In this document: piece by piece, positions 18,736 to 61,727 of the stretch
How positions within the stretch are numbered: the stretch's first letter is position 1
Layout: every line of letters starts with the position of its first letter
Translations under genes and position numbers: made by a program
The notes under the pieces: generated by a model
The model's input: the letters and a program-made list of their open reading frames with translations, nothing else
Databases searched by the model: none
Told to the model about the DNA's origin: nothing
NCBI GenBank assembly: GCA_028717645.1
Contig: JAQUNK010000001.1
Span: forward strand, 68,794-132,793
DNA: 64,000 nucleotides
Source: Candidatus Omnitrophota bacterium
Lineage (GTDB): Bacteria; Omnitrophota; Gorgyraeia; Gygaellales; JAMWDD01
Direction of reading: 5' to 3'

Positions 18736-18742
18736 CAATTCA

Positions 18743-24023: not shown

Positions 24024-24030
24024 TCTAAAA

Positions 24031-39330: not shown

Positions 39331-39334
39331 TTAG

Positions 39335-39694: not shown

Positions 39695-39748
39695 GCCCTA
39701 CGCATTTCTTCTAACTGTTAAATTATCGCTACGGATTTCTAGACTGAC

Positions 39749-45327: not shown

Positions 45328-46589
45328 AGAACCCCGGTTATTTTAAAGGAAAGAAAGTTACGGTAGTAGGCCTGGCCAGAAGCGGCGAGGCCGCTTCTTT
45401 ATTATTGAAAGACCTGGGCGCTGAAGTTTGCATTACAGATGCCAAAGATAACGAGGCCTTAAGAAAAACTGCCGATACCCTTAAGGCGCGCGGCATTAAA
45501 GAAATAGAATTAGGCAAGCATACGCAAAGGCTTATCCAGGGCCAAGACCTGGTAGTGATCAGCCCCGGCGTAAGCGATAAGTCGCCGGCAATTATCTGGG
45601 CGGACGAATTGAAAATACCGGTGATCAGCGAAATAGAACTTTCTTATCTGGCGTGTCCGGCAAAAATCATTGCCACTACGGGGACCAATGGTAAGACCAC
45701 GGTAGCTACCTTGATCGGGAAAATTATTCAGGCTTCCGGTAAAAATGCGGTGATCTGCGGTAACATCGGCAATCCTTTTGCCGGAGAAATAAATAAATTA
45801 AAAACGGGCGACTTTGTTTCTCTGGAGGTAAGTTCTTTTCAGCTGGAAAGGATCAGGGAATTTAAGCCGTTCATTGCGCTGATTTTGACCTTCACCCCGG
45901 ATCATTTAGACAGATATAAGGATATTACAGAATACCTGGCGGCAAAAAAGCGCATCTATATGAACCAGGATAAGAATGATTACCTAGTTTTAAATGATGC
46001 GGATCCTGCCTTAAGGGCCTTAGGTAAAGAGGCCAGGGCAAATGTGCGTTATTTTAAAGAAGGTCCGGGACTGAATCCCAATCAGGCGGCGGTAATGGAG
46101 GTAGCAAATATCCTGGGACTGGATAGGAAATTGTGCTTAGAGGTCCTGCGTAATTTTAAAGGCATGGAACACCGCCTGGAATGGGTCTCTGAGCTGAATG
46201 GTATAGAATTTATCAATGATTCTAAGGCAACGAACGTAGAATCAGCGATTTGGGCGCTGAAGAACATAGATAAGCCCGTTATTTGGATCGCCGGAGGCAG
46301 GGATAAAGGCATAGATTATTCATCTATTGCTGGGTTGGCAAAGGAAAAGATCAGGGCACTTATTTTGATCGGCGAGGCCAAGGATAAGATAAAGAATGCT
46401 TTAGGTAAATTTGTTCCGTACGAAGAAGCCGTGTCCATGAAAAACGCCGTAGAGATCGCTTATAAAAAAGCCAAGCGTGGCGATTGTGTCTTGCTTTCTC
46501 CCATGTGCGCAAGTTTCGATATGTTCTTAAATTATGAAGACCGGGGCAGGGTGTTTAAGCAGGTAGTAAAAGATCTGGTTAAGGGATAA
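45324..46589 (+). CDS. murD: UDP-N-acetylmuramoylalanine--D-glutamate ligase.
   Basis: N-terminal Rossmann motif (VVGLARSG) and P-loop GTNGKTT. Confidence 0.9.
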   Translation: MKNPGYFKGKKVTVVGLARSGEAASLLLKDLGAEVCITDAKDNEALRKTADTLKARGIKEIELGKHTQRLIQGQDLVVISPGVSDKSPAIIWADELKIPVISEIELSYLACPAKIIATTGTNGKTTVATLIGKIIQASGKNAVICGNIGNPFAGEINKLKTGDFVSLEVSSFQLERIREFKPFIALILTFTPDHLDRYKDITEYLAAKKRIYMNQDKNDYLVLNDADPALRALGKEARANVRYFKEGPGLNPNQAAVMEVANILGLDRKLCLEVLRNFKGMEHRLEWVSELNGIEFINDSKATNVESAIWALKNIDKPVIWIAGGRDKGIDYSSIAGLAKEKIRALILIGEAKDKIKNALGKFVPYEEAVSMKNAVEIAYKKAKRGDCVLLSPMCASFDMFLNYEDRGRVFKQVVKDLVKG

Positions 46590-46591
46590 AG

Positions 46592-47683
46592 ATGCGCAGT
46601 TTACGCATATCATTAAGTATTATTACCGTGATGCTTATTTGTATAGGCATCGTGATGATCTATAGCGCCTCCAGTATTTATGCTTTGGATGTCTATCACG
46701 ACAGCACCTTTTTCCTGAAGAGGCACTTGGTGTTTGTATCCATAGGGCTTATCTTGACTTTTTTCGCCATGGCTTTTGATTACCGTAAATTAAAAAAGGC
46801 AGCTAAGCCTCTTTTGCTGGTTGCCTTGGTGCTCTTGGCTTTGGTCTTAGTGCCCGGACTGGGCCGGCAGGTAGCCGGAGCAAGAAGGTGGTTCAGATTC
46901 GGCATTATCAGTTTCCAGCCCTCGGAGCTACTGAGCCTGGCAATGATCATTTATATAGCGGATTTTCTGACGCGTAAAAAAGACCAGCTAAGGAATTTTT
47001 GGACGGGCTATGTGCCTCCGATGATGATCATGGGCGGTAGTGTTCTTTTGATCCTCTTGCAGCCGGACTTGGGCTCAGCCCTGGCCTTAAGCATCGTGGT
47101 TTTCCTTATGCTTTTTGTCGCCGGGGTAAGTGTAAAACATTTGGGCCTGGCGCTGGTCGCGATCATCCCCGTATTATATGTACTTATCTTTAGTGTGCCT
47201 TACCGCAGGGCGCGTATAGTTTCATTCCTGAATCCGTGGGCAGATCCACATGGAAGCGGTTTTCAGATCATCCAGTCCCAGGTGGCCCTGGGTTCGGGAA
47301 AGTTTTTGGGCCTGGGCCTGGGTCACAGCATACAAAAATTATTTTATCTGCCGGCGGCACACACTGATTTTATATTTTCGATTATCGGGGAAGAGATGGG
47401 CCTCTTGGGTACTCTGGCCCTGGCTGCGCTATTTATCCTTTTCGTCGTTAAGGGATTAAAGATCGTCAGTTTGACTGAAGATAGATTCGGATATTTCTTG
47501 GGATTAGGGATCGTGTTGATGATCGCGCTTAAGACAGTAGTGAATATGGGTGTTTCTACAGGGATACTGCCGACGAAAGGCCTACCTTTGCCTTTTATCA
47601 GCTACGGTGGTTCGTCCCTGGTACTGGATATGGTGGGCGTGGGCCTGCTTTTGAATATTTCGCGTTCCGGAGAATATCCATGA
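46592..47683 (+). CDS. ftsW: Peptidoglycan glycosyltransferase FtsW (SEDS family).
   Basis: Ten predicted TM segments. Conserved SEDS region RWFRFG...QPSE and the PLPFISYGGSS tail. Confidence 0.9.
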   Translation: MRSLRISLSIITVMLICIGIVMIYSASSIYALDVYHDSTFFLKRHLVFVSIGLILTFFAMAFDYRKLKKAAKPLLLVALVLLALVLVPGLGRQVAGARRWFRFGIISFQPSELLSLAMIIYIADFLTRKKDQLRNFWTGYVPPMMIMGGSVLLILLQPDLGSALALSIVVFLMLFVAGVSVKHLGLALVAIIPVLYVLIFSVPYRRARIVSFLNPWADPHGSGFQIIQSQVALGSGKFLGLGLGHSIQKLFYLPAAHTDFIFSIIGEEMGLLGTLALAALFILFVVKGLKIVSLTEDRFGYFLGLGIVLMIALKTVVNMGVSTGILPTKGLPLPFISYGGSSLVLDMVGVGLLLNISRSGEYP

Positions 47684-48765
47684 GAATTTTTATCGCCTGC
47701 GGCGGGACAGCCGGGCATTTCCTGCCTGCGCTTAGTTTTGCCGAGGCATTGCGCAGAAAAGCGCCGGATGCGGATACCTGGGTGGTCCTAACCAGGAGAA
47801 AAGTGGAACAAGAAGCTGATCTGGGCGGTCTTAAGGTATTACGCTTATCGCTAGTCCCGGTATCCAAGGATTTAAGCATAAAGAACCTGGCGGCAATATT
47901 GAAATTTATTTTTGGCTGTCTGCAAAGCCTGTATCTAGTGCTCCGGTTCAATCCCGATACGGTGATCGGTTTTGGCGGGTATGCCAGTTTTCCGGTTGTT
48001 TTCTTTTCTTCCTTATTGGGTAAAAAGACATTTATCCACGAACAAAATGTATCTGCCGGCATTTCAAATAAATTTTTAGCGCTCTTGGTAAGCAGGGTTG
48101 CGGTAAGTTTTCCACAGAGTGCGGGATCTTTTTACTGCAAAAAAAATAAGATTGTTTTTACCGGTAATCCTATAAGAAAAGACCTGTCCAGAGTGGATAG
48201 GAAAGAGGCGCTGGCTTATTTTAATTTGCCTGAAAATAAATTTACGCTTTTGGTCATGGGCGGCAGCCAGGGCAGCCGCAAGATCAATACGGAACTTATC
48301 CGCGCGTTAAACGCCTTGGACCTGGAGGATACTTTGCAGATCGTTCATTTAAGTGGTGCATTAGATTACGCGCAGCTTAAAGAAGAATACGGAAAAATGA
48401 AATACCGGGTGCATTTATCCGCTTTTTTAAAGGAAATGAAATTCGCTTACAGCGCGGCGGACCTGGCTATCTCCCGGTCCGGAGCCAGCAGTATAAATGA
48501 GATCATTTATTACCACCTGCCGGCAATACTCGTGCCTTATCCTTATGCCGCAAAGCATCAAAGAGAGAATGCGAAAGTTTTGCAAGATGAGGATGCTTGT
48601 ATTATAATAGAGAACGAAGATTTTAATTCGGAAAGGGTAAAGAATGAACTGGCAGGTCTCTTGAGAGATGATGAGCGCCTGGCTAATCTGCGCTCCAGGC
48701 TGAGCAATATCTTTCGGCCGAACGCCGGAGAAAATCTGGCGGACCTGGTCCTATCTTTAAATTAA
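47680..48765 (+). CDS. murG: UDP-N-acetylglucosamine--N-acetylmuramyl-(pentapeptide)-pyrophosphoryl-undecaprenol GlcNAc transferase.
   Basis: GGTAGH N-terminal motif and a GT28 C-terminal domain (ISRSGASSINE). Confidence 0.9.
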   Translation: MRIFIACGGTAGHFLPALSFAEALRRKAPDADTWVVLTRRKVEQEADLGGLKVLRLSLVPVSKDLSIKNLAAILKFIFGCLQSLYLVLRFNPDTVIGFGGYASFPVVFFSSLLGKKTFIHEQNVSAGISNKFLALLVSRVAVSFPQSAGSFYCKKNKIVFTGNPIRKDLSRVDRKEALAYFNLPENKFTLLVMGGSQGSRKINTELIRALNALDLEDTLQIVHLSGALDYAQLKEEYGKMKYRVHLSAFLKEMKFAYSAADLAISRSGASSINEIIYYHLPAILVPYPYAAKHQRENAKVLQDEDACIIIENEDFNSERVKNELAGLLRDDERLANLRSRLSNIFRPNAGENLADLVLSLN

Positions 48766-48768
48766 AAT

Positions 48769-50151
48769 ATGCAAGATAAAAAAGAAAATAAAAATATTTA
48801 CTTTATCGGTATCGGCGGCATCGGGATGAGCGGCATTGCGCTTATCCTGCTTAAAAAAGGATACGTAGTAGAGGGCTCTGATGTAAAAGATAGCAATATT
48901 ATCAATCAATTGCGCAGGGCCGGTGCTAAGATCTATATCGGCCACAACGCTGAGAACCTCAAGGAAGGCACAAACATAGTGGTTTATTCTTCGGCGATAA
49001 AAGAAGATAACCCGGAACTGAAGGAGGCCCGCAGGCGGCACCTGACCGTGATGCGCAGGGCCGAAAGCCTGGCGCGCCTGATGGAAGACAAGACCGTGAT
49101 CACGGTGACCGGAGCACACGGCAAGACCACTACTACTTCTTTGGCTTCCTACCTTTTGTTCAAGGCAAATCTTAATCCTACGGTGGCGGTAGGGGGCATA
49201 TTGCGTAACCTGGATAACAATGCCCTCTTAGGCAGCGGCAAGTTCTTCGTTGCTGAAGCGGATGAGTCTGACGGATCATTCCTGCACTATAAGCCGGACT
49301 ACTCTATTATCACCAACATAGATTACGAGCATATGGATTTTTACAAGGATTGGCCAAACCTCATAAGTACCTACAGGAAATTTATCAATAATACGAAAGA
49401 AAGCGGCATGGTATTCTGCTGCGGAGACGATATCAACCTCAAAGATATCCTGAAGACCTGTAAAAATAAGCATCTTCTTTTCGGCCTGACCAAAGATTCA
49501 GATATCCATCCCAAAGACATAAAAATGCGGGACTGGCTCACCGAATACGAATGTATCTACAAGAATAAATCGCTGGGGAAATTTTCCCTGCCGTTAATGG
49601 GTACGCATAATGTTTCGAATTCGCTTGCCGTGATCGGGCTGGGTATGGAACTGGACCTGGACCTGAAGGTGATAAAAGAAACGCTGTCCACCTTCAAGGG
49701 TTCCGAGCGCAGGCTACAGATAAAACTCGAACAGGACGGGATATTAGTGGTGGATGATTATGCGCACCATCCTACCGAGATCAGGGCGGTGCTTAACGCT
49801 ATCAGGAATTTGAACAATAGAAGGATCGTGACTATTTTCCAGCCGCATCGCTATTCGCGCACGAAATTGCTTATGGATGAATTCGCTACCTGTTTTGACC
49901 TTTCCGATTATAACATTATCACGGATATTTATCCTGCCAGCGAAGAACCCATCGAAGGGATAAGCGGCAGGAGCATTTACGAAAAAGTAAAACAGAGCGG
50001 ACATAAAGAAACCCATTTTCTGCCCAAGGAAGAGATCGTAGATTATGTATGTAAGATCCTTAAACCCCAGGACCTGGTGATCACCCTGGGGGCAGGAGAT
50101 ATTTATAAGGTAAACAATGACCTGGTCTCAAAACTTAAGAAAGCGCCTTAA
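48769..50151 (+). CDS. murC: UDP-N-acetylmuramate--L-alanine ligase.
   Basis: YFIGIGGIGMSGIA N-terminus and P-loop GAHGKTTTTS. Confidence 0.9.
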   Translation: MQDKKENKNIYFIGIGGIGMSGIALILLKKGYVVEGSDVKDSNIINQLRRAGAKIYIGHNAENLKEGTNIVVYSSAIKEDNPELKEARRRHLTVMRRAESLARLMEDKTVITVTGAHGKTTTTSLASYLLFKANLNPTVAVGGILRNLDNNALLGSGKFFVAEADESDGSFLHYKPDYSIITNIDYEHMDFYKDWPNLISTYRKFINNTKESGMVFCCGDDINLKDILKTCKNKHLLFGLTKDSDIHPKDIKMRDWLTEYECIYKNKSLGKFSLPLMGTHNVSNSLAVIGLGMELDLDLKVIKETLSTFKGSERRLQIKLEQDGILVVDDYAHHPTEIRAVLNAIRNLNNRRIVTIFQPHRYSRTKLLMDEFATCFDLSDYNIITDIYPASEEPIEGISGRSIYEKVKQSGHKETHFLPKEEIVDYVCKILKPQDLVITLGAGDIYKVNNDLVSKLKKAP

Positions 50152-50998
50152 ATCGGGCGTTTTCCTTTCTCGTTATACGACTTTTCGGATCGGAGGGAAA
50201 GCGCGCTTTTTTATCGAGCCGAAAAACGTAAAAGAATTAACAGCCGTAATAAAAGAAGCGCGTAAGGCGAAGGTCCCTTACTATATTTTGGGTAACGGAA
50301 GCAATCTCTTAGTCAGCGATAAGGGCATAAACGGCGTAGTGATCAAATTATCCAGCCCTTATTTTAAAAAGGCCAGCTTCAAGAAAAATATTATAGATGC
50401 CGGCGCGGGATTGAACCTGGGGCAGATGATCGAAAAGGCCAGGAACAAGGGCCTGGGAGGCTGTGAATTCTTATCCGGTATACCGGCAACAGTGGGTGGC
50501 GCAGTAATGATGAACGCAGGTGCCAGGGGAGATTCTATCAGCGGCCTGATAAAAGAGGTCAAGGTGCTCGATAAAAATGGAAAGGTGGGTACCTTAGGCA
50601 AAGGTAAGCTTAAATTCGGTTACCGTAAGTCTAACCTCTCCCAATATATTTTATTAAGCGCCAAAATAAAATTAGAAAAGAGGCCAAAAGGAGAGATCGG
50701 CCAAAGGATCAGTGATTACCTGAGTGTGCGTAGGCAAACGCAGGATACGGGTAAACCCAACGCAGGTTGTGTATTTAAAAATCCCGCCGGTGATTCGGCA
50801 GGGAGACTGATCGACCTTTGCGGCCTCAAGGGAAAAAGGGTCCGGGATGCCCAGGTATCTTTCCGGCACGCTAATTTTATCGTCAACCGCGGCCGGGCAA
50901 AGGCAGAAGACGTGCTAAAGCTGGCATCTTTTGTCAAGCAAAGGGTAAAAGAAAGATTCGGCGTGGCACTGGAGGAAGAGATAAAAATATGGCAGTGA
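50117..50998 (+). CDS. murB: UDP-N-acetylenolpyruvoylglucosamine reductase.
   Basis: FAD-binding domain (TTFRIGG, GNGSNLL) and a C-terminal MurB domain. Confidence 0.9.
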   Translation: MTWSQNLRKRLKSGVFLSRYTTFRIGGKARFFIEPKNVKELTAVIKEARKAKVPYYILGNGSNLLVSDKGINGVVIKLSSPYFKKASFKKNIIDAGAGLNLGQMIEKARNKGLGGCEFLSGIPATVGGAVMMNAGARGDSISGLIKEVKVLDKNGKVGTLGKGKLKFGYRKSNLSQYILLSAKIKLEKRPKGEIGQRISDYLSVRRQTQDTGKPNAGCVFKNPAGDSAGRLIDLCGLKGKRVRDAQVSFRHANFIVNRGRAKAEDVLKLASFVKQRVKERFGVALEEEIKIWQ

Positions 50999-51933
50999 AT
51001 AATTTTGGAAAAATCGGCGTTTTATTAGGCGGGCCTTCTGCGGAAAGAGAGATCTCTCTTAAGTCCGGAAGGGCAGTCTATAAGGCCTTGAGCGATGCGG
51101 GTTACGATGTAGTTTTGATAGATATAGTAGACGACGATATCAAATCGAATGCCATACTTTTAAAAGAAAGCGCTATTGATGTGGCCTTTATTGCTTTGCA
51201 CGGCCATTTTGGCGAAGACGGACCGATGCAATCGATCTTGGAGGAACTAGATATACCTTACACAGGCTCAGGGCCGATGGCAAGCAAATTGGCCATGGAT
51301 AAAATTGCCTCTAGAAAAATATTCAAGAGCCGCGGCCTCTCTGTGCCAAAATGCCTGGAGGTAGATGATAAAGCCTATCGGATGGATGATGCGCTGTCCC
51401 TGCCTGTAGTGGTCAAGCCGGCAACCAATGGCTCAAGTATCGGGCTTTCCATTGTGGAAAACAAAAATGATTTTGCTAAGGCCCTGGAGACGGCGCTTAG
51501 CCTGGACAGCCGCGCGATAGTGGAAGAATATATCAAGGGAAGGGAATTTACCGTAGGTATCCTGAATGAAAAGGCCCTACCGGTGATAGAAGTAAAACCG
51601 CATAACAAATTCTTCGATTTCGAGGCAAAATATAAATCAGGGATGACCGATTATATCGTGCCTGCCCAGATCGATGAACGATTGAGCGAGCGTGCCAAGG
51701 AGGTAGGGTTGGCGGCGCATAGGGCCTTGGGTTGCCGGGGATTTTCCCGGGTCGATATGATCCTGGGGTCAGATGATAATTTTTATGTACTGGAGCTAAA
51801 TTCCATACCGGGCCTGACCGAAACCAGCCTTTTACCGAAGGCAGCAAGATGCGTGGGGATAGATTTCCTGAAACTATGTTTAATCTTAATCGAAGGTGCA
51901 TATGAAAAAAATAAAGATAGGGCCGTTAATTAA
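50989..51933 (+). CDS. ddl: D-alanine--D-alanine ligase.
   Basis: KIGVLLGGPSAEREISL N-terminus and ATP-grasp motifs (VVKPATNGSSIGLS, LELNSIPGLT). Confidence 0.9.
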   Translation: MAVNNFGKIGVLLGGPSAEREISLKSGRAVYKALSDAGYDVVLIDIVDDDIKSNAILLKESAIDVAFIALHGHFGEDGPMQSILEELDIPYTGSGPMASKLAMDKIASRKIFKSRGLSVPKCLEVDDKAYRMDDALSLPVVVKPATNGSSIGLSIVENKNDFAKALETALSLDSRAIVEEYIKGREFTVGILNEKALPVIEVKPHNKFFDFEAKYKSGMTDYIVPAQIDERLSERAKEVGLAAHRALGCRGFSRVDMILGSDDNFYVLELNSIPGLTETSLLPKAARCVGIDFLKLCLILIEGAYEKNKDRAVN

Positions 51934-52639
51934 ATTTTCCATTGCGTTCGCCGTACTCATCGCGCTTTTGGTCTATTTGGGTATTGCAGTATGCAATTTC
52001 CTGAAAGGTTCGGATTATTTTAAGATAAAAGATATCGTTGTAATCAATAACTATGTGGATTTCCCCACCCTAAAAGGGATAAATATATTTTCGTTGAACC
52101 TGAAAAACGTTTCTCAGGCCATACAGAACAAATGCCCCGACCAGAAACTGGTCAGGGTTTCCAAGGTAATGCCGAACCGCCTGATCATAGAATTTCAGAA
52201 GCGCGTGCCTTTGGCGGCTGTGCGGCTGGATAGGCTCTATTTTTTTGACAGCCAGGGTATTCTTTTTGAGATGCCGCAGGAGACCACCGCTTCCGCTTAC
52301 CCTATGATCACAGGCCTGAAGATCTCCAATCCCCGGCTGGGCGTAAAATATAATCTTAAGGATCTGGATGATGCGTTGCGCCTGGTAATACAGTCGGCGC
52401 GCCTGGGCTTATCCGGAAGGTATCCGATAAAGATGATCGATGTATCCAATCCGGATTACCTGACGTTCTCCATACTGAATAATCTCAAGATCAAGATACC
52501 CAACGACGGGATGCAGGAGAAACTGAGTGTTTTTATTTCCTTGATCTCCCAGGTAAATATGGATTTAAACAGAGTAGAATATATTGATTTAAGGTTTAAG
52601 GATCCGACGATCAAATTGAAAGGGGTCAATGAAAAATAA
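51896..52639 (+). CDS. ftsQ: Cell division protein FtsQ/DivIB (POTRA domain).
   Basis: N-terminal TM segment followed by a POTRA-like region (IKDIVVINNYVDFPT). In the ddl-ftsQ-ftsA position. Confidence 0.7.
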   Translation: MHMKKIKIGPLIKFSIAFAVLIALLVYLGIAVCNFLKGSDYFKIKDIVVINNYVDFPTLKGINIFSLNLKNVSQAIQNKCPDQKLVRVSKVMPNRLIIEFQKRVPLAAVRLDRLYFFDSQGILFEMPQETTASAYPMITGLKISNPRLGVKYNLKDLDDALRLVIQSARLGLSGRYPIKMIDVSNPDYLTFSILNNLKIKIPNDGMQEKLSVFISLISQVNMDLNRVEYIDLRFKDPTIKLKGVNEK

Positions 52640-53888
52640 TTTTATCTGTGCCGTAGATTTGGGTTCAAGTAAGCTTAGCGCCATAGTTTGTGTATTCAAT
52701 AAGCAGGGAAAAATAATCGATATGTCCATGGAGAGTGCTCCCTCCCGGGGCATCAAAGGCGGCCGGATCGTCGATTTTTCGGATTTATCCTCTAACCTGG
52801 AAAGCCTGCTTAAGAAGCTGGAGAAAGCTCAGGGCTCCAGGATCAAAGAGTTCTATACCAATGTTTCGGGCAATGAAATTTCTACGGCGCATTCTCGCGC
52901 GATTATTCCTTTGGCAGAGAGGGGCAATCGCGTGATTACCGACGCGGATATCTTTCGCGTGAAAGAACAGGCCAGGATACTCGGCACCAGCCTCCAGGAA
53001 GAAATTATCCACGAGATACCTTTTGGTTACATAGTCGACACGGATAATTTTTGTTCCGACCCGCGCGAACTGTATGCGCACAGGCTGGAGATAGATCTTT
53101 ATTTAATCTATGCCAAGCTTTCGCATATTCAAAGCCTGACGCGCATGGCGCACCAGCTGGGTTTTTCCATAAAAGGTATTTTTTATTCCGGTTTGATCAG
53201 CGCTAAGTTGGCCTTAGGCGAAAGTATCAGGCGTGCCACGGATATATTTTGCGATATTGGAGCCGATATGACGGACCTGGTATTCTTCAAGAACAACATT
53301 CTGCAAAGCCTCCAGGTACTGCCGATAGGCGGCGATGAGATTACCAGTGCCATTGCCAGGGGCCTCAGTATCCCTTTCGAACTGGCAGAAGAGATCAAGC
53401 GTAGTTCTGCGGTGATCGGCAAACCCGAAGATCTTCCGGCAGGAAAAGAGGTCATGGTAAATAAAGGCAGTAATTATATGCCCATAAAGCAGAGAGAGAT
53501 CTCCCGCATTGCCACTGAATCTGCCGCGGGTATGTGCCGCCAGATAAAGGAAGCGATAGATAAGGTTGCTCCGGCCAATACGATAAATAACCTTTTTATT
53601 TCTGGCAGGACGGTAATTCAGGAGGGATTTTTAGAAAAACTGGAAGAAGTTACCGGTATTCCCACGCGCCTCGTTCGTATTCCCGGCCACTTATTCATCA
53701 ATAATGAAATACATAACGAGCTCACATCTTCCTATATGAAAATGCTGACATACCTTAATGCCTTTGGCCTGGTCACGCATGCCGCCGAAAGCACACAGGA
53801 GAATAATATCTTGCGCCAGGTGCCTACCCTAAAGCCTTTATCCGGCGTAATCAATAAAGTAAAACAAGTATACCAGCAGTATTTTTAA
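52629..53888 (+). CDS. ftsA: Cell division protein FtsA (actin-like ATPase).
   Basis: ICAVDLGSSKLSAIV phosphate-1 motif, DIGADMTDLVFF and GGDEITSAIA motifs of the FtsA/actin fold. Confidence 0.85.
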   Translation: MKNNFICAVDLGSSKLSAIVCVFNKQGKIIDMSMESAPSRGIKGGRIVDFSDLSSNLESLLKKLEKAQGSRIKEFYTNVSGNEISTAHSRAIIPLAERGNRVITDADIFRVKEQARILGTSLQEEIIHEIPFGYIVDTDNFCSDPRELYAHRLEIDLYLIYAKLSHIQSLTRMAHQLGFSIKGIFYSGLISAKLALGESIRRATDIFCDIGADMTDLVFFKNNILQSLQVLPIGGDEITSAIARGLSIPFELAEEIKRSSAVIGKPEDLPAGKEVMVNKGSNYMPIKQREISRIATESAAGMCRQIKEAIDKVAPANTINNLFISGRTVIQEGFLEKLEEVTGIPTRLVRIPGHLFINNEIHNELTSSYMKMLTYLNAFGLVTHAAESTQENNILRQVPTLKPLSGVINKVKQVYQQYF

Positions 53889-53911
53889 TCTCGCTTTCCC
53901 TCCAAGACTTG

Positions 53912-53940
53912 TTGACACTATTTTTGTTTTGTGTTAATGT
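53912..53940 (+). promoter_or_regulatory. Possible sigma70-like promoter (TTGACA-17 nt-TAATGT) for yggS-proC.
   Basis: TTGACA at 53912-53917 and TAATGT at 53935-53940, in the 60-bp gap after ftsA. Confidence 0.35.
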
Positions 53941-53948
53941 TTTAGGCA

Positions 53949-54602
53949 ATGGTTAAGGATAATATCTCTAAAATAAAGGCCCAGATCGCGCATGCCTGCG
54001 CAAAGTCCGGCCGTAATGCCAATGAGGTAAGCATAGTTGCGGTAACCAAGGCTAGGGCGCCAGAGGATATTGAAGAGGTCCTGCGTGCAGGCCTCACTGA
54101 CGTCGGAGAAAACAAGATACAAGAGGCCGTTGCCAAGCAGGCTAAAGTAAAAGGTGCCCGCTGGCATTTTATCGGGCATCTGCAGACCAATAAAGTAAAA
54201 GAGGCGGTAAGGATATTCGATCTGATCCAATCTGTGGATAGCATTCATCTTGCCGAAGAGATAGACCGCCAGGCACAAAAGATCGGCAAGGTCCAGGATA
54301 TATTAGTAGAGATAAAGACATCCGCTGAGGCGACTAAATTTGGTTTCTTGCCCTTAGATCTGCCGCGGGCCATAGAAGAAATAACCAAGCTAAAAAACAT
54401 AAATCTGGCAGGGTTGATGACCATCGCAGCTCTTACAGGGGCAGCTGAAGGCAGCCGGCCGTATTTCCGTATTTTAAGGGAATTAAGGGATAAGATAAAT
54501 AAGGATTGGATCTTATCTATGGGCATGAGCGATGATTTCAAAATAGCGATAGAAGAAGGCTCGACCATGGTGAGAATCGGCAGGGCCATTTTTGAAGGTT
54601 AA
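53949..54602 (+). CDS. yggS: YggS/YlmE-family PLP homeostasis protein.
   Basis: 217 aa with the alanine-racemase N-terminal TIM-barrel fold and a PLP-lysine region (VSIVAVTKARAPEDI). Confidence 0.8.
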   Translation: MVKDNISKIKAQIAHACAKSGRNANEVSIVAVTKARAPEDIEEVLRAGLTDVGENKIQEAVAKQAKVKGARWHFIGHLQTNKVKEAVRIFDLIQSVDSIHLAEEIDRQAQKIGKVQDILVEIKTSAEATKFGFLPLDLPRAIEEITKLKNINLAGLMTIAALTGAAEGSRPYFRILRELRDKINKDWILSMGMSDDFKIAIEEGSTMVRIGRAIFEG

Positions 54603-55422
54603 GATGAAAAAGAGTGTCGGCATAATCGGTTGCGGGAATATGGGCAGGGCAATAGCTGAGCGTATTAGCCGGCATTATAAAGTCCATATCTTTGATAAAG
54701 ACAAAAATAAAACCAGGAATTTTAAAAAGGTAACCGTTGAAGAGAGTGCTAGAGGTTTGAGTATCAATAGCGACGTGATAATCTTAGCGGTTAAGCCCCA
54801 GGATTTTGATGTTGTCTTGGCTGCAATCAAAGATTATGCAGAGGATAAGATGGTAATTTCCATTGCTGCAGGGATATCCGCTAAATATATCGAAAAAAGA
54901 TTGGGAAAGGTGAAGGTAATCAGGGTCATGCCTAACCTGCCGGCAAAGATCGGTAAAGGCATGATCTGTTTAGCCAAGGGAAAGTTCGCTAAAGGTAAAG
55001 ACTTGGCTTTCGCCCGGCAGATATTTAATTATTTAGGTAAGACACTGGTTATTCAAGAAAAAATGATGAACGCTGCGACTGCGGTTTCAGGCAGCGGGCC
55101 GGGATTTCTTTTTGCTAAATTGGAAAACAAACCTAAGAAACAATGGTCGAAATATTGCAATGAATATTTTATTCCCGAGCTCCGAGAAGCTGCGATCAAC
55201 GTTGGTTTTAGTCCTGCGCAGGCAAGCTTATCCGCAATAATTACTACAAAGGGAAGCCTTGAATTATTAAAGAAAACTTATTATTCGCCAGGTGTTTTAT
55301 GTTCAAAAGTTGCTTCTAAGGGCGGGACTACAGAGGCGGGATTAAGGGTTTTGGATAAAAAAGGTTTAAATGCTGCGGTTGAAGCAGCAGTCAAAAGGGC
55401 TGTAGAATTATTAAGGAGTTAA
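54592..55422 (+). CDS. proC: Pyrroline-5-carboxylate reductase.
   Basis: VGIIGCGNMGRAI Rossmann motif and a P5CR C-terminal dimerisation region (GSGPGF...TSKGGTTEAG). Confidence 0.85.
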   Translation: MKVKMKKSVGIIGCGNMGRAIAERISRHYKVHIFDKDKNKTRNFKKVTVEESARGLSINSDVIILAVKPQDFDVVLAAIKDYAEDKMVISIAAGISAKYIEKRLGKVKVIRVMPNLPAKIGKGMICLAKGKFAKGKDLAFARQIFNYLGKTLVIQEKMMNAATAVSGSGPGFLFAKLENKPKKQWSKYCNEYFIPELREAAINVGFSPAQASLSAIITTKGSLELLKKTYYSPGVLCSKVASKGGTTEAGLRVLDKKGLNAAVEAAVKRAVELLRS

Positions 55423-55423: not shown

Positions 55424-56296
55424 ATGGGCAGGATAGGAATTATCGGCGGAAGCGGTTTATACAGGATGGAAGGGTTGAAGCATTTAGAAGAGACAAATGT
55501 AGATACGCCTTTTGGAAAACCGTCTGATGCATTTTTATTGGGGGAAATAGAAGGTAAAGAGATCGCCTTTCTGCCGCGCCACGGCGTCGGCCATCGCATT
55601 TCACCGTCTGAAATAAATTACCGCGCCAATATCTACGCCATGAAAAAACTGGGCGTGGACAGGATCATTTCGGTTGCTGCCTGCGGGAGCCTTAAAGAAG
55701 AGATAAAACCTTTGGATTTTGTGGTAGTGGACCAGTATGTCGACCGCACCAACCATGCCCGCGAGATGTCTTTTTTTAATCAGGGCATAGTCGCGCATAT
55801 TTCTTTTTCGCATCCGGTCTGCAAGGAATTAAGCGAAATATTATATGACGTCGGGTACGAATCGGGGCGGGACATGAAAATAAAGATGCATAAGGGCGGC
55901 ACGTATATCAATATGGAAGGGCCGGCATTTTCGACGCTGGCTGAATCGAACCTTTACCGCAGCTGGGGTATGGACATCATCGGTATGACCAATATGGCCG
56001 AGGCCAGGCTTGCCCGTGAGGCGGAAATTTGTTATGCCACGTTAGCCGCGGTGACCGATTATGATTGTTGGCACCCGCAATACGAAACCATTACAGTAGA
56101 GATGGTGATAAAGAACCTGCAGAAGAATATCGACAATGCCAAGAAGATACTGCAGGCGACGCTGAAAAGATTACCCAAAGAAAGGACCTGTGCCTGCCGC
56201 GAGGCGTTAAAGAATGCCATTATCACCGACCCTAAACTTATACCTTTAGAGGTTAAAAAGGACCTGCAGGTCATTATCGGAAAATATATTAAATAA
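55424..56296 (+). CDS. mtnP: S-methyl-5'-thioadenosine phosphorylase (PNP/MTAP family).
   Basis: MGRIGIIGGSGLY N-terminus and the MTAP-type GMTNMAEARLAREAEICYA motif. Confidence 0.8.
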   Translation: MGRIGIIGGSGLYRMEGLKHLEETNVDTPFGKPSDAFLLGEIEGKEIAFLPRHGVGHRISPSEINYRANIYAMKKLGVDRIISVAACGSLKEEIKPLDFVVVDQYVDRTNHAREMSFFNQGIVAHISFSHPVCKELSEILYDVGYESGRDMKIKMHKGGTYINMEGPAFSTLAESNLYRSWGMDIIGMTNMAEARLAREAEICYATLAAVTDYDCWHPQYETITVEMVIKNLQKNIDNAKKILQATLKRLPKERTCACREALKNAIITDPKLIPLEVKKDLQVIIGKYIK

Positions 56297-56307: not shown

Positions 56308-59115
56308 ATGGAATACAAAAATACCTTAAATCTGCCCAAGACCGATTTCTCCATGAAAGCGGACCTGGCAAAAAACGAACCCGGCTTTTTAAAAAAGTGG
56401 GAAGAGATCGGCCTGTATGATTTGATCAAGGCCCACTCAGCTACCCGGCCGAAATATATCCTGCATGACGGCCCGCCCTACGCCAACGGTGATATCCATA
56501 TCGGGCATGCCCTGAACAAAACCTTAAAAGATATCATTATCAAATATAAGACCATGAGCGGATTCTCTTGTAGTTATGTGCCTGGTTGGGACTGCCACGG
56601 CCTGCCGGTGGAGCATCAGCTATTTAAGGAATTAGGCATAACCAAGCACCAGATCGATCAGGTAGAATTCCGCAAAAAGGCCTATGCTTATGCCATGAAG
56701 TTCGTGAATATCCAGAAAGAACAATTCAAGCGGCTGGGTGTGACCGGCGATTGGGAGAGCCCATACCTTACCTTAGATAAGCAATATGAAGAGGCGATCG
56801 TGCGTTCTTTCGCCGAATTGGTCGAAAAAAAATATATTTATCGCGGGCTAAAACCGGTCAACTGGTGTTTTAAATGCGAAACTGCGCTTGCCGAGGCGGA
56901 AGTAGAATATGAAGACGACGCTTCCCCTTCGGTTTATCTAAAATTTGAACTGTTGGCTGCGCAGAAAAATTTACCGGCTATCCCGCAAGGGAAAAAAGTT
57001 TATGCTATTGTCTGGACGACTACGCCCTGGACATTGATCGCCAACGTAGCCATTGCCGTGCATCCTAATTTTGAATATGCGCTGGTTGAAACCGGGAATG
57101 AGATCTGGATAATCCAAAAAGACCTGGCCACTTCAGTTTTAGAAAAATTAGGCATCAAAGACTATAAGATAAAAAGTTATGTTTTAGGAAAGGATTTGGA
57201 CAGCGCGCAATATAACGATATCTTTAAGCCGGCCAGGCGCACAAATTTTAGATTCGTCCTGGCAGATTATGTTTCCAAAGAAGAAGGGACCGGCTGTGTG
57301 CATACCGCACCCGGCCACGGCCAGGAAGATTATTTAAGCGGCCAGCGTTATAATCTTGAAACAGTCATGCCGGTGAATGGCAAGGGCGAATTCTTCCAGG
57401 ACATTGCTATGGAATTTAAGGGACAGCATGTGTTTTCCGCCAACGAAAAGATCATCACGAAATTAAAACAACAAGGAAGCCTGCTTTATTCCGGAGAGAT
57501 CGCGCATACCTACCCGCACTGCTGGCGTTGCAAGACCCCGATCATCTTCAGGGCCACTGAGCAGTGGTTTTTAAAGATCGACCACGAGGGCTTGAGGAAA
57601 AAACTTCTTGCGGCCATAGCCAACCAGGTAAAATGGGTTCCTCCGGCCGGTAAAGAAAGGATTTCCGCGATGGTCGAATTAAGGCCGGACTGGTGCCTTT
57701 CGCGGCAGAGGTTATGGGGAGTACCCATACCTGCTTTAATTTGTACGCATTGCACTAAAGAGTTCCTGGATATAAAAGTAATTGAAAAATTCGCAGATAC
57801 CGTGGCAAAAGAGGGTTCGGATAGCTGGTTTACCAAAGATGTCAAAGAATTTTTACCCGCGGGTTTAAAATGCCCGCATTGCGGTGCCGAAGGATTTCTG
57901 AGATCCAGCGATATCCTTGATGTCTGGTTTGATTCTGGGGTGAGCAGTCAGGCCGTGCTTAAAAAGAGAAAGGAACTGGAATTTCCCGCTGCGCTTTATC
58001 TAGAGGGCTCTGACCAGCATCGGGGATGGTTTCAATCATCGCTGATCCCCGCAATGTGCATTGACGGTAAACCGCCTTTTAAAAGTGTACTCACACACGG
58101 ATTCGTAGTTGACGGAGAAGGAAAAAAGATGTCTAAGTCCCAGGGTAATGTCATTTCGCCCCAGGACATCATCCATAAATACGGCGCGGATATATTAAGG
58201 CTGTGGGTTGCCTCTAGCAATTACAATGAAGATATCCGTATTTCCGAAGAGATATTGAAGAATCTTATAGATGCATACCGTAAGATCCGTAATACCGCCA
58301 GGTTCCTGCTGGGCAATCTTGCGGACTTCGATCCTGTCAAAGACGCAGTAGATTATGAAAAACTGGATGATCTGGATAAATGGGCTTTGTACAGGCTTGA
58401 GGTAGTGCGCCAGGAAGTAGAGAAGGCCTATGAAAGTTTTGATTTTTGCCGGGCATTCCAGGAAATTTATAATTTTTGTAATATCGATCTCTCCAGTTTC
58501 TATCTGGATATCTTAAAGGATAAGCTTTATACCTTTAAGCGCAATTCTCTCTCTCGGCGCGCCTCGCAAACGGTACTCTGTGAAATCCTTTCTTACCTGG
58601 TGAGGCTTATTGCACCGATCCTTGCCTTTACTGCGGAAGAACTATTTAAGCACCTGCCCAAAAAACATGACTATGTAAATACCGAAAGCGTCCATCTTCT
58701 TTCCTGGCCCAAGCCCGAAGCCCGCTGGTTGAACCGGGAAGTGAGCGAGAAGCTGGATATCCTTTTTAAGATAAGGCCGCATATCCTGAAGCAGATAGAA
58801 GAACTACGCACGCAGGGCGGCATCGGCAGTTCCCTGGAGGCACAATTAATTTTGTTGACAAACAACGCAAAACGGTATACATTCTTAGCAAGTTATAAAG
58901 ATATTTTGTCCGCTGTTTTTATCGTTTCTAGCGTTAAAATAGAAAAGGTAGAGGTTTTAGAAAAACCTTTAAGCGAGGAATTGAACGACCTGGCAATAAA
59001 AGTAGCGCGTTCAGATGGTGAAAAATGCGCACGCTGCTGGAACTGGCGGCCGTCTGTTGGAGGGAATAAGGAACATCCTACGTTGTGTGACAGGTGCCTG
59101 GAAGCGATTAAGTAA
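56308..59115 (+). CDS. ileS: Isoleucine--tRNA ligase.
   Basis: HIGH (PYANGDIHIGH) and KMSKS motifs, a CP1 editing domain and a C-terminal zinc-binding CARCWNW...CDRC. Confidence 0.95.
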   Translation: MEYKNTLNLPKTDFSMKADLAKNEPGFLKKWEEIGLYDLIKAHSATRPKYILHDGPPYANGDIHIGHALNKTLKDIIIKYKTMSGFSCSYVPGWDCHGLPVEHQLFKELGITKHQIDQVEFRKKAYAYAMKFVNIQKEQFKRLGVTGDWESPYLTLDKQYEEAIVRSFAELVEKKYIYRGLKPVNWCFKCETALAEAEVEYEDDASPSVYLKFELLAAQKNLPAIPQGKKVYAIVWTTTPWTLIANVAIAVHPNFEYALVETGNEIWIIQKDLATSVLEKLGIKDYKIKSYVLGKDLDSAQYNDIFKPARRTNFRFVLADYVSKEEGTGCVHTAPGHGQEDYLSGQRYNLETVMPVNGKGEFFQDIAMEFKGQHVFSANEKIITKLKQQGSLLYSGEIAHTYPHCWRCKTPIIFRATEQWFLKIDHEGLRKKLLAAIANQVKWVPPAGKERISAMVELRPDWCLSRQRLWGVPIPALICTHCTKEFLDIKVIEKFADTVAKEGSDSWFTKDVKEFLPAGLKCPHCGAEGFLRSSDILDVWFDSGVSSQAVLKKRKELEFPAALYLEGSDQHRGWFQSSLIPAMCIDGKPPFKSVLTHGFVVDGEGKKMSKSQGNVISPQDIIHKYGADILRLWVASSNYNEDIRISEEILKNLIDAYRKIRNTARFLLGNLADFDPVKDAVDYEKLDDLDKWALYRLEVVRQEVEKAYESFDFCRAFQEIYNFCNIDLSSFYLDILKDKLYTFKRNSLSRRASQTVLCEILSYLVRLIAPILAFTAEELFKHLPKKHDYVNTESVHLLSWPKPEARWLNREVSEKLDILFKIRPHILKQIEELRTQGGIGSSLEAQLILLTNNAKRYTFLASYKDILSAVFIVSSVKIEKVEVLEKPLSEELNDLAIKVARSDGEKCARCWNWRPSVGGNKEHPTLCDRCLEAIK

Positions 59116-59121
59116 GGCTAC

Positions 59122-59529
59122 GTGGATATTCAAGGAGGCTTGATTAAAGTGAAAAAGAAACTGGATAAAAAAGAATTATTAGAGTTTAAGAAATTGGTCT
59201 TGAAGAAAAAAAGCGAGCTCATTGAGCAGATAAACCATATCTCCGAAGATACCCTGAAAAAGTCTCCCAAGGAGGCCTCCGGCGATATCTCCAGCTATAC
59301 CTACCATATGGCAGACGTAGCCACGGATACCTATGACCGCGAGTTCAGTATGTCTCTGGCTTCTAATGACAGGGCGATATTCTATGAAATCGAGGACGCC
59401 TTAAAAAAGATAGAAGACGGCACCTATGGCATTTGCGAAGAATGCAAAGACTTCATTGCAAAGGTAAGGCTAAGGGCGATCCCTTATGCGCGCCTTTGCC
59501 TGAAATGCCAAGAAAAGAAAGAAAAATAA
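59122..59529 (+). CDS. DksA/TraR-family C4-type zinc-finger protein.
   Basis: C-terminal CEECKDFI...CLKCQ four-Cys zinc finger preceded by a coiled-coil. The ileS-dksA-like-lspA arrangement occurs in several lineages. Confidence 0.7.
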   Translation: MDIQGGLIKVKKKLDKKELLEFKKLVLKKKSELIEQINHISEDTLKKSPKEASGDISSYTYHMADVATDTYDREFSMSLASNDRAIFYEIEDALKKIEDGTYGICEECKDFIAKVRLRAIPYARLCLKCQEKKEK

Positions 59530-59541
59530 CCCCCTTACTTT

Positions 59542-59988
59542 ATGGCCATTGTAAGCATAATCATCTTTGGCCTCATTCTTGATCAATCCACTAAATTTCT
59601 TGCCTTAAGGAATCTGGCCGTAAATGAATCCATCCCGGTGCTGAAAGGCATCTTTCACCTCACTTTGGTTTTTAATCGGGGTGCCGCTTTCGGCATATTC
59701 AAGAATTATACCACCTTTTTAATTATTGCTTCCTGTGCTACCATTCTTTTCATCGTCCTGAGCCTTAAGGAAAGTAGAAAGGTCAATCTGGTAAATATTT
59801 CTTTAAGTTTGATCTTAAGCGGGGCAATAGGAAATTTAATAGATCGGCTCAGGCTTGGCCTGGTCGTGGATTTCCTGGATTTCCGCGTTTGGCCCGTGTT
59901 TAATGTTGCGGACAGCATAATTACCATAGGCGCCTTATTATTGGCGTTCTCTTTATTCAGGCCCGGCAATGCAACCCATAATTTGTGA
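59542..59988 (+). CDS. lspA: Lipoprotein signal peptidase II.
   Basis: NRGAAFGIF, GNLIDR and FNVADS conserved SPase II boxes. Confidence 0.9.
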   Translation: MAIVSIIIFGLILDQSTKFLALRNLAVNESIPVLKGIFHLTLVFNRGAAFGIFKNYTTFLIIASCATILFIVLSLKESRKVNLVNISLSLILSGAIGNLIDRLRLGLVVDFLDFRVWPVFNVADSIITIGALLLAFSLFRPGNATHNL

Positions 59989-60706
59989 TATCGGCCCAAT
60001 ACATATTTTTTCTTACGGCCTGCTGCTAGTCTTGGCTCTTTTTACCGCTACGTTTTTAGCGGAGAAAGAAGCGGCAAGAGTGGGCATAAGCACGGATTTG
60101 ATCTGGAATATCGCGTTTATTTCCATCGTATCCGGCATCATCGGAGCACGCATATTCTATGTCCTTGAAAATATACAATTTTATTCCAAGCATACCCTGG
60201 AAATAATTCTATTGCAACATGGTGGATTGAGCTGGTTCGGGGGGCTGGGCCTGGGGCTTTTCAGCGCGTTCTATTACATGAAAAAGAAGTCCCTGCCGGT
60301 GGTCAAGATGCTTGATTTTTGGGCACCGTACCTTGCGCTTGCACACGCGATCGGTAGGATCGGTTGTCTCTTAAATGGGTGTTGCTATGGCAGGCCTTCA
60401 CCTTACGGCATTTATTTCCCGGTGCACGATAAAGTGCTCATACCCATCCAGATGTATTCGAGCCTGGCGCTTCTTTCCATCTTTATTATCCTCAGATTAT
60501 TACAGAAAAAACCCCGCCCCACAGGATTTATTATCTATACGTACCTTTTCCTGTATTCGATAGAAAGATTTATTATTGAATTTTTCCGCGCGGATAATAA
60601 GCAGATCATTTACGGCCTGACCTTATTTCAGATTATCGCCGCCGCTATATTTTTATTTTCGGCGGCAAAACTTTTTTTCTTAAGCAGGCCAAAGGTCTTA
60701 AAGTGA
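59969..60706 (+). CDS. lgt: Phosphatidylglycerol--prolipoprotein diacylglyceryl transferase.
   Basis: Lgt signature GRIGCLLNGCCYG with a multi-TM topology. Confidence 0.9.
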   Translation: MQPIICDIGPIHIFSYGLLLVLALFTATFLAEKEAARVGISTDLIWNIAFISIVSGIIGARIFYVLENIQFYSKHTLEIILLQHGGLSWFGGLGLGLFSAFYYMKKKSLPVVKMLDFWAPYLALAHAIGRIGCLLNGCCYGRPSPYGIYFPVHDKVLIPIQMYSSLALLSIFIILRLLQKKPRPTGFIIYTYLFLYSIERFIIEFFRADNKQIIYGLTLFQIIAAAIFLFSAAKLFFLSRPKVLK

Positions 60707-61605: not shown

Positions 61606-61612
61606 GGAAATT

Positions 61613-61640
61613 CTTGATTTTTAAATTTATGTTGTTATAA
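61613..61640 (+). promoter_or_regulatory. Sigma70-like promoter with an extended -10 (TTGATT-16 nt-TGTTATAAT).
   Basis: TTGATT at 61613-61618 and TG-n-TATAAT at 61632-61640, upstream of the coiled-coil protein gene. Confidence 0.45.
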
Positions 61641-61727
61641 TCAAATGAAGGCTTGATCTAGCGAGCGATAACGAAGCTAAGTCACGGGTCAAATTGCGCA
61701 TTAAAAAATATTTAGAGGGAGGAAAAA

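Follow-up and report, generated by a model that had tools for sequence, protein, structure and literature searches.

FtsZ is regarded as a near-universal organiser of bacterial cell division, tethered to the membrane by FtsA. In the canonical dcw cluster of E. coli and B. subtilis, the genes from mraZ to ftsA are followed by a terminal ftsZ. Two FtsZ-less lineages are among the closest comparisons for the Omnitrophota locus described here, which matches the canonical cluster gene for gene from mraZ to ftsA but has no ftsZ at the end. Planctomycetes, which divide by budding or binary fission without FtsZ, are like Omnitrophota a large lineage that belongs to the PVC group or lies close to it and that has lost ftsZ. 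However, they generally lack ftsA and ftsB as well, their dcw cluster is broken into fragments, and in several of their orders ftsW and many mur genes have gone too, whereas the Omnitrophota cluster analysed here is complete and colinear. Chlamydiae are likewise PVC-related and FtsZ-less and, like Omnitrophota, keep the peptidoglycan genes together with FtsQ, FtsW and FtsI; their septal peptidoglycan synthesis is directed by MreB/RodZ. Chlamydiae have lost FtsA too, whereas Omnitrophota retain a conserved FtsA, encoded by the final gene of an intact, unfragmented dcw cluster.

Omnitrophota, an uncultured phylum, are mostly ultra-small cells. That they lack ftsZ while keeping FtsA is already known from the literature. 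Supplementary Note 1 of Seymour et al. (2023) reports no ftsZ in the phylum other than one archaeal-like contaminant, whose product is 89% identical to an archaeal protein. In the source data of that study, the entry for genome 58, the one full Pfam list available for a check of the tubulin family, includes PF02491, PF14450, PF06723 and K03587-K03590 but not PF00091, PF12327, PF13809 or K03531; the same data place MreB in at least one Omnitrophota genome. Pende et al. (2021) class Omnitrophica as FtsZ-less and FtsA-positive: of the four Omnitrophica genomes other than OLB16 given there, three have FtsA without FtsZ and the fourth has neither. These published absence calls are HMM or marker detections on metagenome-assembled genomes (MAGs), which a very divergent tubulin homologue could escape. 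Statements in PVC reviews that Omnitrophica possess FtsZ rest on the bin OLB16, the only FtsZ-positive 'Omnitrophica', which was later shown to be misclassified. A 2025 iScience paper describes dcw genes as conserved in Omnitrophota, and its supplement contains no Omnitrophota rows. The published record of the absence of FtsZ is confined to one supplementary note and one figure legend, and PVC reviews that drew on a misclassified genome contradict it, so the fact is under-appreciated.

The sequence analysed here, referred to as the window, is a 64-kb stretch of a contig of about 135 kb. It comes from a bacterium of the candidate phylum Omnitrophota. A Candidatus Omnitrophica MAG encodes a protein 100% identical to the FtsA of the window, the named proteins among the 120 best matches of this FtsA all belong to Omnitrophica or Omnitrophota except for one "Deltaproteobacteria" entry, and 26 kb of synteny is shared with GTDB Omnitrophota species. 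A sequence-only reading of the window had described its dcw cluster as complete and colinear apart from ftsZ. Pfam searches of the window ORFs bear this out for every gene but the ftsL-like ORF, which is assigned by position only. The cluster lies on the forward strand at 37994-53888, in the order mraZ-rsmH-ftsL-ftsI-murE-murF-mraY-murD-ftsW-murG-murC-murB-ddl-ftsQ-ftsA.

The first gene, mraZ (37994-38431; PF02381 MraZ, E = 2.9e-42), is followed by rsmH (mraW; 38428-39330; PF01795, E = 1.4e-103) and by the ORF for the ftsL-like small membrane protein (39335-39694), which encodes 119 aa with a hydrophobic N-terminal segment and has no Pfam or NCBIfam match. Next come ftsI, encoding a PBP3-type transpeptidase (39749-41470; PF00905 at 1.1e-74, and PF03717), murE (41448-42899) and murF (42875-44236), both with Mur ligase domains, mraY (44236-45327; Glycos_transf_4 with MraY_sig1), murD (45324-46589; Mur ligase domains and MurD-like_N) and ftsW, which encodes the SEDS glycosyltransferase (46592-47683; PF01098, E = 1.2e-114). 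Pfam matches also identify murG (47680-48765), murC (48769-50151), murB (50117-50998) and ddl (50989-51933). The end of ftsQ (51896-52639; PF03799 FtsQ_DivIB_C, E = 6.4e-10) overlaps by 11 nt the start of ftsA (52629-53888; PF14450 and PF02491), the last gene of the cluster.

Immediately 3' of ftsA, at the expected place of ftsZ, the sequence reads as a spacer of 60 bp (53889-53948), which is much too small to contain a gene remnant. A search around it revealed no site resembling a terminator or promoter, and the base composition is even through the junction. The next gene is yggS (ylmE), encoding a PLP-binding protein (53949-54602, forward strand; PF01168), whose product passes the TIGR00044 cutoff (183.3 bits against 106.25). 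Both the gap and the identity of the neighbour are therefore as first read. The accompanying remark that yggS follows ftsZ in most bacteria is too general: in Firmicutes, Actinobacteria and Cyanobacteria, yggS is found one or two genes downstream of ftsZ, but the gene next after ftsZ is lpxC in many Proteobacteria, E. coli among them. Further downstream, on the same strand, lie proC (54592-55422; P5CR_dimer with F420_oxidored), MTAP (55424-56296; PNP_UDP_1; TIGR01694, 319.8 bits against a cutoff of 274.85) and a block identified by Pfam (56308-63853) that comprises ileS, a dksA/traR-like gene, lspA, lgt, rluD, a gene for a membrane-anchored coiled-coil protein (61728-62525) and aroA.

No FtsZ or tubulin homologue was detected anywhere in the 64-kb window by tblastn, motif, phmmer or Pfam searches, in agreement with the sequence-only reading. 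The best tblastn match of E. coli FtsZ had an E value of only 1.3, the GGGTG[ST]G-type motif is absent from every frame, and phmmer --max with FtsZ against window ORFs of at least 50 aa gave no match under E = 0.77. Likewise, no window ORF scanned matched the Tubulin or FtsZ_C families of Pfam, both of which recognise the E. coli FtsZ query (8e-52 and 2.9e-37, respectively). Genes of the zapA, sepF or minE type were sought among the short ORFs of the window; those scanned encode hydrogenase/Mrp subunits, NusB, RbfA and acylphosphatase, and none is of these types.

Three distant relatives, with contigs as long as 1.19 Mb, have the same arrangement, ftsQ-ftsA-yggS-proC-MTAP-ileS. We further surveyed the ftsA loci of 80 other Omnitrophota species (1.22 Mb), whose FtsA proteins are 41-60% identical to that of the window; 67 of these loci were informative. 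In all 67 the dcw cluster terminates at ftsA, and in none is there an ftsZ. At 52 of the 67, yggS lies within 32-676 bp of ftsA (median spacer 126). Unrelated insertions of 0.9-5.7 kb separate the two genes at five loci; these were considered as divergent ftsZ genes and rejected, as their products are unrelated and some of the genes run in the opposite direction. The remaining 10 loci, which lack yggS downstream, were rejected as ftsZ carriers because other genes, and no ftsZ, occupy that position. A phmmer --max search for FtsZ against 4,490 ORFs of the Omnitrophota loci gave a best E value of 0.77, and no FtsZ was found across 1.28 Mb of Omnitrophota DNA surrounding the cluster. Upstream, ftsQ is directly 5' of ftsA in all three gene-called loci and in every species locus with a recovered upstream flank, and the order of the block from ileS to aroA is identical in 35 of the 37 loci with sufficient flank. 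The survey shows that the ftsA-terminated cluster is an old, phylum-wide arrangement.

The FtsA of the window exceeds the Pfam gathering thresholds for PF14450 (64.7 bits against 31.8) and for the SHS2 insertion, PF02491 (51.6 against 25.4). It falls narrowly, by about 2 bits, under the NCBIfam equivalog cutoff of TIGR01174 (173.6 against 175.85), consistent with the name 'FtsA domain-containing protein' that NCBI gives to the matching protein, and its profile matches include weak similarity to PilM. An AF2 model (pLDDT 88.3, pTM 0.85) contains subdomains 1A, 1C, 2A and 2B and a predicted C-terminal helix (404-418) after a low-confidence linker (394-403), so the four-subdomain fold and the 1C insertion are those of canonical FtsA, and the C-terminal helix is a putative counterpart of its amphipathic membrane-targeting helix. 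In Foldseek searches the best matches of the model were FtsA structures (TMq 0.75-0.81, TMt 0.82-0.89), and it was nearer to these than to PilM (TM 0.57-0.75 over both normalisations) or MreB (about 0.45-0.68). Highest among them were PDB entries 7Q6F and 7Q6I, antiparallel double filaments of FtsA with FtsN (TMt 0.87-0.89); in their source organisms FtsA works with FtsZ. These structures set a precedent for an FtsA that assembles with itself on membranes and brings in late divisome proteins by way of 1C.

An alignment of 119 sequences has a mean column identity of 65% and shows no variation at D10, K15, D209 and G211, which belong to the nucleotide site. The two regions of lowest entropy are 1C (blocks 91-100 and 151-160) and the final ten residues, the C-terminus being strongly conserved (..EVYQEYF). 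The adenosine motif reads G-[RK]-T in Omnitrophota, in contrast to the canonical G-G-[AS]. Judged by the model together with this alignment, the protein is a divergent yet structurally complete, real and probably functional FtsA under constraint. FtsA, FtsQ, the FtsL-like protein, FtsW, FtsI and the Mur enzymes are all kept under purifying selection.

A different picture is obtained for the surface to which the FtsZ tail binds. A motif common to the FtsA proteins of E. coli and S. aureus, from two phyla, IE[PA]R..E, includes R300 and E303 of the E. coli protein, which we take to be important for binding of the FtsZ tail. It falls within residues 294-304 of E. coli FtsA, which, with residues 234-245, a published account implicates in this interaction. 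In the Omnitrophota alignment, which is of low confidence in subdomain 2B, the R300 column contains S56 K36 E7 G6 A5 R4 and the E303 column L55 S26 A8 E8. The predicted FtsZ-tail-binding helix has an entropy of 1.74, compared with an FtsA mean of 1.27, and is the least conserved structured part of the protein. Within the limits of the low-confidence 2B alignment, these sequence data are suggestive of the disappearance from Omnitrophota FtsA of the IE[PA]R..E motif that canonical FtsA carries in this helix.

We consider it probable, at roughly 0.8, that the common ancestor of the sampled Omnitrophota, or an earlier one, lost ftsZ and that these bacteria divide by means of a tubulin-free divisome. 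The gene order, the absence of ftsZ from 67 loci, the FtsA fold and its conservation come from the present analysis, the genome-wide absence of FtsZ comes from the literature, and the mechanism is one that we infer. As a consequence of such a loss, the dcw cluster would stop at ftsA, usually abutting yggS-proC-MTAP-ileS. An FtsZ-less lineage was one of two possibilities raised by the sequence-only reading, and membership in Omnitrophota, together with the surveys of Seymour et al. (2023) and Pende et al. (2021), which in the parts cited above report FtsA without FtsZ, favours it over the other. The same reading called loss of FtsZ with retention of ftsA, ftsQ and ftsW unusual; this is apt, since according to Pende et al. 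(2021) Planctomycetes and Chlamydiae have also lost FtsA, which in the organism of the window is present and conserved.

The other possibility, that ftsZ is still in the genome but has been relocated outside the 64-kb window, is improbable. The window covers only part of the genome, FtsA, best known as the FtsZ tether, is kept and conserved, and some reviews call Omnitrophica FtsZ-positive. However, the phylum survey in the supplement of Seymour et al. (2023) records no ftsZ bar one archaeal-like sequence, Pende et al. (2021) list FtsZ in none of four genomes other than OLB16, and OLB16 itself is misclassified; moreover, the 1.28 Mb around the cluster contain no FtsZ, and the FtsZ-tail-binding motif of FtsA is degenerate. 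This phylum-level evidence makes relocation in the window genome unlikely rather than directly disproving it. To a similarly small degree one may suspect that FtsZ was replaced by a tubulin-superfamily protein too divergent for HMM or BLAST searches, to which FtsA would still act as a tether. The absence of PF00091, PF12327 and PF13809 from the Pfam list of genome 58 in the Seymour et al. source data, the failure to find anything tubulin-like inside the cluster or next to it across 80 species, and the position of the FtsZ-tail-binding helix as the least conserved structured part of FtsA all argue against such a protein, even though FtsA keeps a complete 2B subdomain and the published absence calls are marker or HMM detections.

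A little less probable still is a repurposed FtsA, serving as a PilM-like or other actin-fold scaffold while division depends on MreB or unidentified factors, as in Chlamydiae. The score slightly below the NCBIfam equivalog cutoff with the matching 'FtsA domain-containing' name, the weak PilM similarity and the MreB listed for at least one genome in the Seymour et al. source data are in line with this proposal, but the gene is the last of the dcw cluster, after ftsQ, in every species examined and its start overlaps ftsQ in the window, the predicted structure is clearly nearer to FtsA than to PilM, and the FtsA-specific SHS2/1C insertion is present and is the most conserved part of the protein. 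Finally, faulty assembly or binning could have removed ftsZ from the ftsA-yggS junction or placed it elsewhere. The sequence-only reading named misassembly as a concern, and a MAG source and a gap of just 60 bp speak for such an artefact, but it is excluded for practical purposes because the cluster ends alike in independent assemblies of other species from many studies and samples (junction at 52 of 67 loci, ftsZ at none), and the composition is even across the junction.

If ftsZ was lost in this way, division would be run by FtsA, FtsQ, the FtsL-like protein, FtsW and FtsI without a tubulin. FtsA would act as a membrane-anchored actin homologue kept on the membrane by its C-terminal helix. 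Through its strongly conserved 1C subdomain, and possibly in concert with MreB, it would bring in or switch on the FtsQ/FtsL-FtsW/FtsI peptidoglycan synthase, while the former FtsZ-tail-binding surface would have been freed from constraint. We propose, tentatively and as somewhat less than an even bet, that membrane-bound FtsA polymers stand in for the Z-ring as organiser and act directly on FtsQ/FtsL-FtsW/FtsI to position or activate them. A new role of FtsA would then be mirrored in the freed 2B face and in the G-[RK]-T nucleotide motif specific to the clade.

For annotation, a missing ftsZ in Omnitrophota MAGs should not be counted as incompleteness or misassembly. For the biology of division, a phylum without FtsZ yet with an intact dcw cluster and a conserved FtsA separates the roles of the two proteins in nature and suggests that FtsA has a core function independent of FtsZ, the recruitment or activation of the septal peptidoglycan synthase. 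If FtsA is indeed at the centre of the Omnitrophota divisome, these bacteria would provide the first example, at the level of a phylum, of FtsA acting without FtsZ.

The dcw cluster of the window is complete and colinear, as the sequence-only reading had described it, and both the ORF listing and the Pfam and NCBIfam scans agree that it ends at ftsA. All of its genes lie on the plus strand, in the order mraZ (37994–38431), rsmH (38428–39330), an ftsL-like ORF of 119 aa (39335–39694), ftsI (39749–41470), murE, murF, mraY and murD (41448–46589), ftsW (46592–47683), murG, murC, murB and ddl (47680–51933), ftsQ (51896–52639) and ftsA (52629–53888). The ftsL-like ORF, which matched no Pfam or NCBIfam family, is assigned by position and hydrophobic N-terminus only. 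A 60-bp gap, in which no terminator-like or promoter-like site was found, separates ftsA from yggS (53949–54602, plus strand; TIGR00044, 183 bits against a cutoff of 106), and beyond yggS lie proC, MTAP, ileS, a dksA/traR-like gene, lspA, lgt, rluD, a gene for a membrane-anchored coiled-coil protein, and aroA. The one departure from a textbook dcw cluster is that its terminal gene is missing. The coiled-coil protein (61728–62525, 265 aa) combines a hydrophobic N-terminal segment with a long coiled coil, and its only matches are generic coiled-coil ones; a homologue at 25–42% identity stands between the same two genes, rluD and aroA, at 35 of 37 loci from Omnitrophota, which makes it a candidate scaffold of the envelope or of division.

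The earlier claim that the window contains neither an FtsZ-like ORF nor a tubulin signature was borne out by every search. The best tblastn match of E. coli FtsZ to the window had an E-value of only 1.3; this query was recognized by Pfam as Tubulin (8e-52) and FtsZ_C (2.9e-37). The tubulin signature motif is absent from all six frames, an unfiltered phmmer search of the window ORFs of at least 50 aa reached no better E-value than 0.77, and no tubulin-family Pfam model matched any of the approximately 70 ORFs scanned.

Our own searches covered the window and the cluster loci, and the genome-wide absence of FtsZ is based on the literature. In an analysis of 421 Omnitrophota genomes, Seymour et al. 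2023 (PMC10066038, Supplementary Note 1) found no ftsZ except for one sequence, which is 89% identical to an archaeal protein and points to contamination or recent transfer; Ratteibacteria, once placed within the phylum, possess ftsZ and were left out. In the portion of their annotation table used here, one Omnitrophota genome (genome 58) has PF02491, PF14450, PF06723 (MreB), K03569–71 and K03587–90 (mreBCD and ftsI/W/Q/A) and is listed without PF00091, PF12327, PF13809 or K03531; the same portion contains TIGR01174 three times and TIGR00065 not at all. Pende et al. 2021 likewise counted Omnitrophica as an FtsZ-less phylum: of the Omnitrophica genomes in their table, three have FtsA but lack FtsZ, one lacks both proteins, and "Omnitrophica bacterium OLB16" is the single one to have both. 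Statements on this point conflict (PMC5147048, PMC5945725, PMC8178401, PMC10066038), and the positive claim can be traced to that single bin: Rivas-Marin et al. 2016 and 2017 stated Omnitrophica to be FtsZ-positive from OLB16 alone, whose OLB16/SURF_12 lineage was misclassified as Omnitrophica according to Seymour et al. (PMC10066038), which accounts for the contrary statement. The ftsA and ftsZ accessions of OLB16 are adjacent. In a 2025 paper, the dcw genes of Omnitrophota are described, as a set, as "highly conserved". Supplementary Note 1 of PMC10066038 also gives ftsY and ribosomal protein L30 as absent lineage-wide, labelling ftsY a ribosome assembly protein where it is the SRP receptor; loss of FtsY, if true, would be no less surprising than loss of FtsZ.

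Given these reports, this genome likely lacks FtsZ anywhere. A move of ftsZ to another place in this genome, beyond the reach of our own searches, is improbable in view of the near-uniform absence across 421 genomes. There is similarly little chance of a cryptic, highly divergent tubulin homologue, which might evade family models; unfiltered phmmer gave no sign of one in the window.

The retained FtsA is, judging from its predicted structure, a divergent yet complete FtsA. It is 17–21% identical to solved FtsA structures and scores 173.6 bits on the NCBIfam equivalog TIGR01174, just below the cutoff of 175.85; the guarded name given to it by NCBI ("FtsA domain-containing") is in keeping with this. 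An AlphaFold2 model built with 119 sequences (mean pLDDT 88.3, pTM 0.85) has its best structural matches in FtsA of E. coli, Vibrio, S. aureus and T. maritima (TMq 0.75–0.81, TMt 0.82–0.89), and PilM ranks behind these (0.57–0.75, both normalisations). Within the phylum, mean column identity is 65%, D10, K15, D209 and G211 of the nucleotide site do not vary, and entropy is lowest in the 1C/SHS2 subdomain (blocks 91–100 and 151–160) and the last ten residues (..EVYQEYF). The predicted C-terminal helix comes after a disordered linker, a layout that in the model is that of the FtsA membrane-targeting sequence. At residues 326–328, the adenosine-binding motif of the actin fold, 114 of 119 Omnitrophota sequences have G-[RK]-T, whereas the motif is G-G-[AS] in FtsA of E. 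coli and S. aureus; G-[RK]-T is a signature of the clade.

The least conserved structured segment is the helix of subdomain 2B at 288–313 (entropy 1.74; mean of the whole protein, 1.27). The FtsZ-tail contact on E. coli FtsA has been assigned to 2B residues 234–245 and 294–304. E. coli and S. aureus FtsA share the motif IE[PA]R..E, which holds R300 and E303, residues that we take to be important in FtsZ binding. The Omnitrophota columns aligned to them, in a region where the alignment is weak, read S/K/E/G/A and L/S/A/E. Alignments of the window FtsA with E. coli or S. aureus FtsA by phmmer end near residue 263, whereas that between the latter two continues through 2B. A conserved 1C and C-terminus with a degenerate 2B helix is the pattern expected if FtsZ binding had lapsed while polymer, membrane and 1C functions persisted, and serves only as supporting evidence for such a lapse. 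Repurposing of FtsA outside division appears quite improbable beside the conserved 1C and the place of ftsA within the cluster.

A protein with 100% identity to the window FtsA is encoded on a contig of 134,972 bp in an NCBI MAG that carries the label Candidatus Omnitrophica. Among the best 120 matches, the next relatives are 60–69% identical and the other top matches 41–47%, those named being Omnitrophica/Omnitrophota except for one Deltaproteobacteria. The exact order ftsQ-ftsA-yggS-proC-MTAP-ileS-dksA-lspA recurs in three distant relatives, in one case on a contig of 1.19 Mb. A survey of one genome per species, a set that does not include the genome of the window, was searched with an Omnitrophota FtsA alignment and yielded 80 loci (1.22 Mb in total) whose FtsA is 41–60% identical to that of the window. 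Among the 67 loci that extend at least 1.5 kb beyond ftsA, yggS lies 32–676 bp (median 126) after ftsA in 52, unrelated ORFs separate the two genes in five, other genes are found downstream in ten, and ftsZ is downstream of ftsA in none; the block through aroA is conserved in 35 of the 37 loci with sufficient flank. Lineage-specific interruptions of this otherwise rigid cluster include a Peptidase_MA_2 gene between murG and murC (locus L003, 1323–2096) and, between ftsA and yggS, a 1,717-aa ORF (L070, 11353–16506) and, in opposite orientation, the gene of a 475-aa membrane protein (L060, 11291–12718, minus strand). Since ftsZ follows ftsA in none of the 67 loci, the end of the dcw cluster at ftsA predates the diversification of the sampled Omnitrophota. 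Because yggS-proC usually comes directly after ftsA, a simple deletion of ftsZ from an ancestral ftsA-ftsZ-yggS order seems plausible from gene order. Misassembly at this junction, which the sequence-only reading had allowed for, is excluded by its presence in the three distant relatives and the species survey.

Elsewhere in the window, all credible genes (about 70) are on the plus strand and GC skew is positive in every 2-kb bin, as expected if the segment belongs to the leading strand; the uniformity of gene orientation is unusual. A membrane-bound hydrogenase/complex-I-like module joined to Mrp antiporter subunits (6476–15108) comprises NuoH-like, NuoB-like (7389–7820), NuoC-like (7820–8263) and NuoD/NiFe large-subunit-like (8263–9450) proteins, two Proton_antipo_M proteins, MbhD/E, MnhE and MrpF, and is an Mbh/Mrp-type energy-converting complex. 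Adjoining it, a single 392-aa ORF (15741–16919) combines an N-terminal HupF/HypC hydrogenase-maturation domain with radical SAM, an uncommon fusion. A 317-aa ORF (18614–19567) has weak PP-loop ATPase similarity (NAD_synthase, QueC, ATP_bind_3; E approximately 1e-4 to 1e-5); as listed, with a TTG start, it shares 122 nt with the 3' end of nadE, and its true start probably lies downstream of that TTG. The riboflavin operon ribBA, ribH, nusB, ribD, ribE (22228–27808) is broken by genes for a PHP-domain protein (24438–25271) and a GGDEF-domain protein (26419–27234).

Phylum-wide loss of ftsZ explains the observation with a probability of about 0.9; the gene would have been lost in the Omnitrophota ancestor, and division would then run on the retained machinery. 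Tentatively, this mechanism may centre on FtsA, which would be held on the membrane through its C-terminal helix and engage the FtsQ/FtsL-like/FtsW/FtsI synthase through 1C, with MreB possibly contributing. Chlamydiae and Planctomycetes are FtsZ-less like Omnitrophota, but Omnitrophota keep FtsA and an unfragmented cluster. The absence of ftsZ in Omnitrophota was already known, though its publication was confined to one supplementary note and one figure legend and other papers contradict it; the present analysis adds a synteny survey of 80 species, structural confirmation of the FtsA fold, the degenerate motif for FtsZ binding and the G-[RK]-T adenosine motif. Though not new, the ftsZ-less cluster of these uncultured organisms is real and biologically odd.
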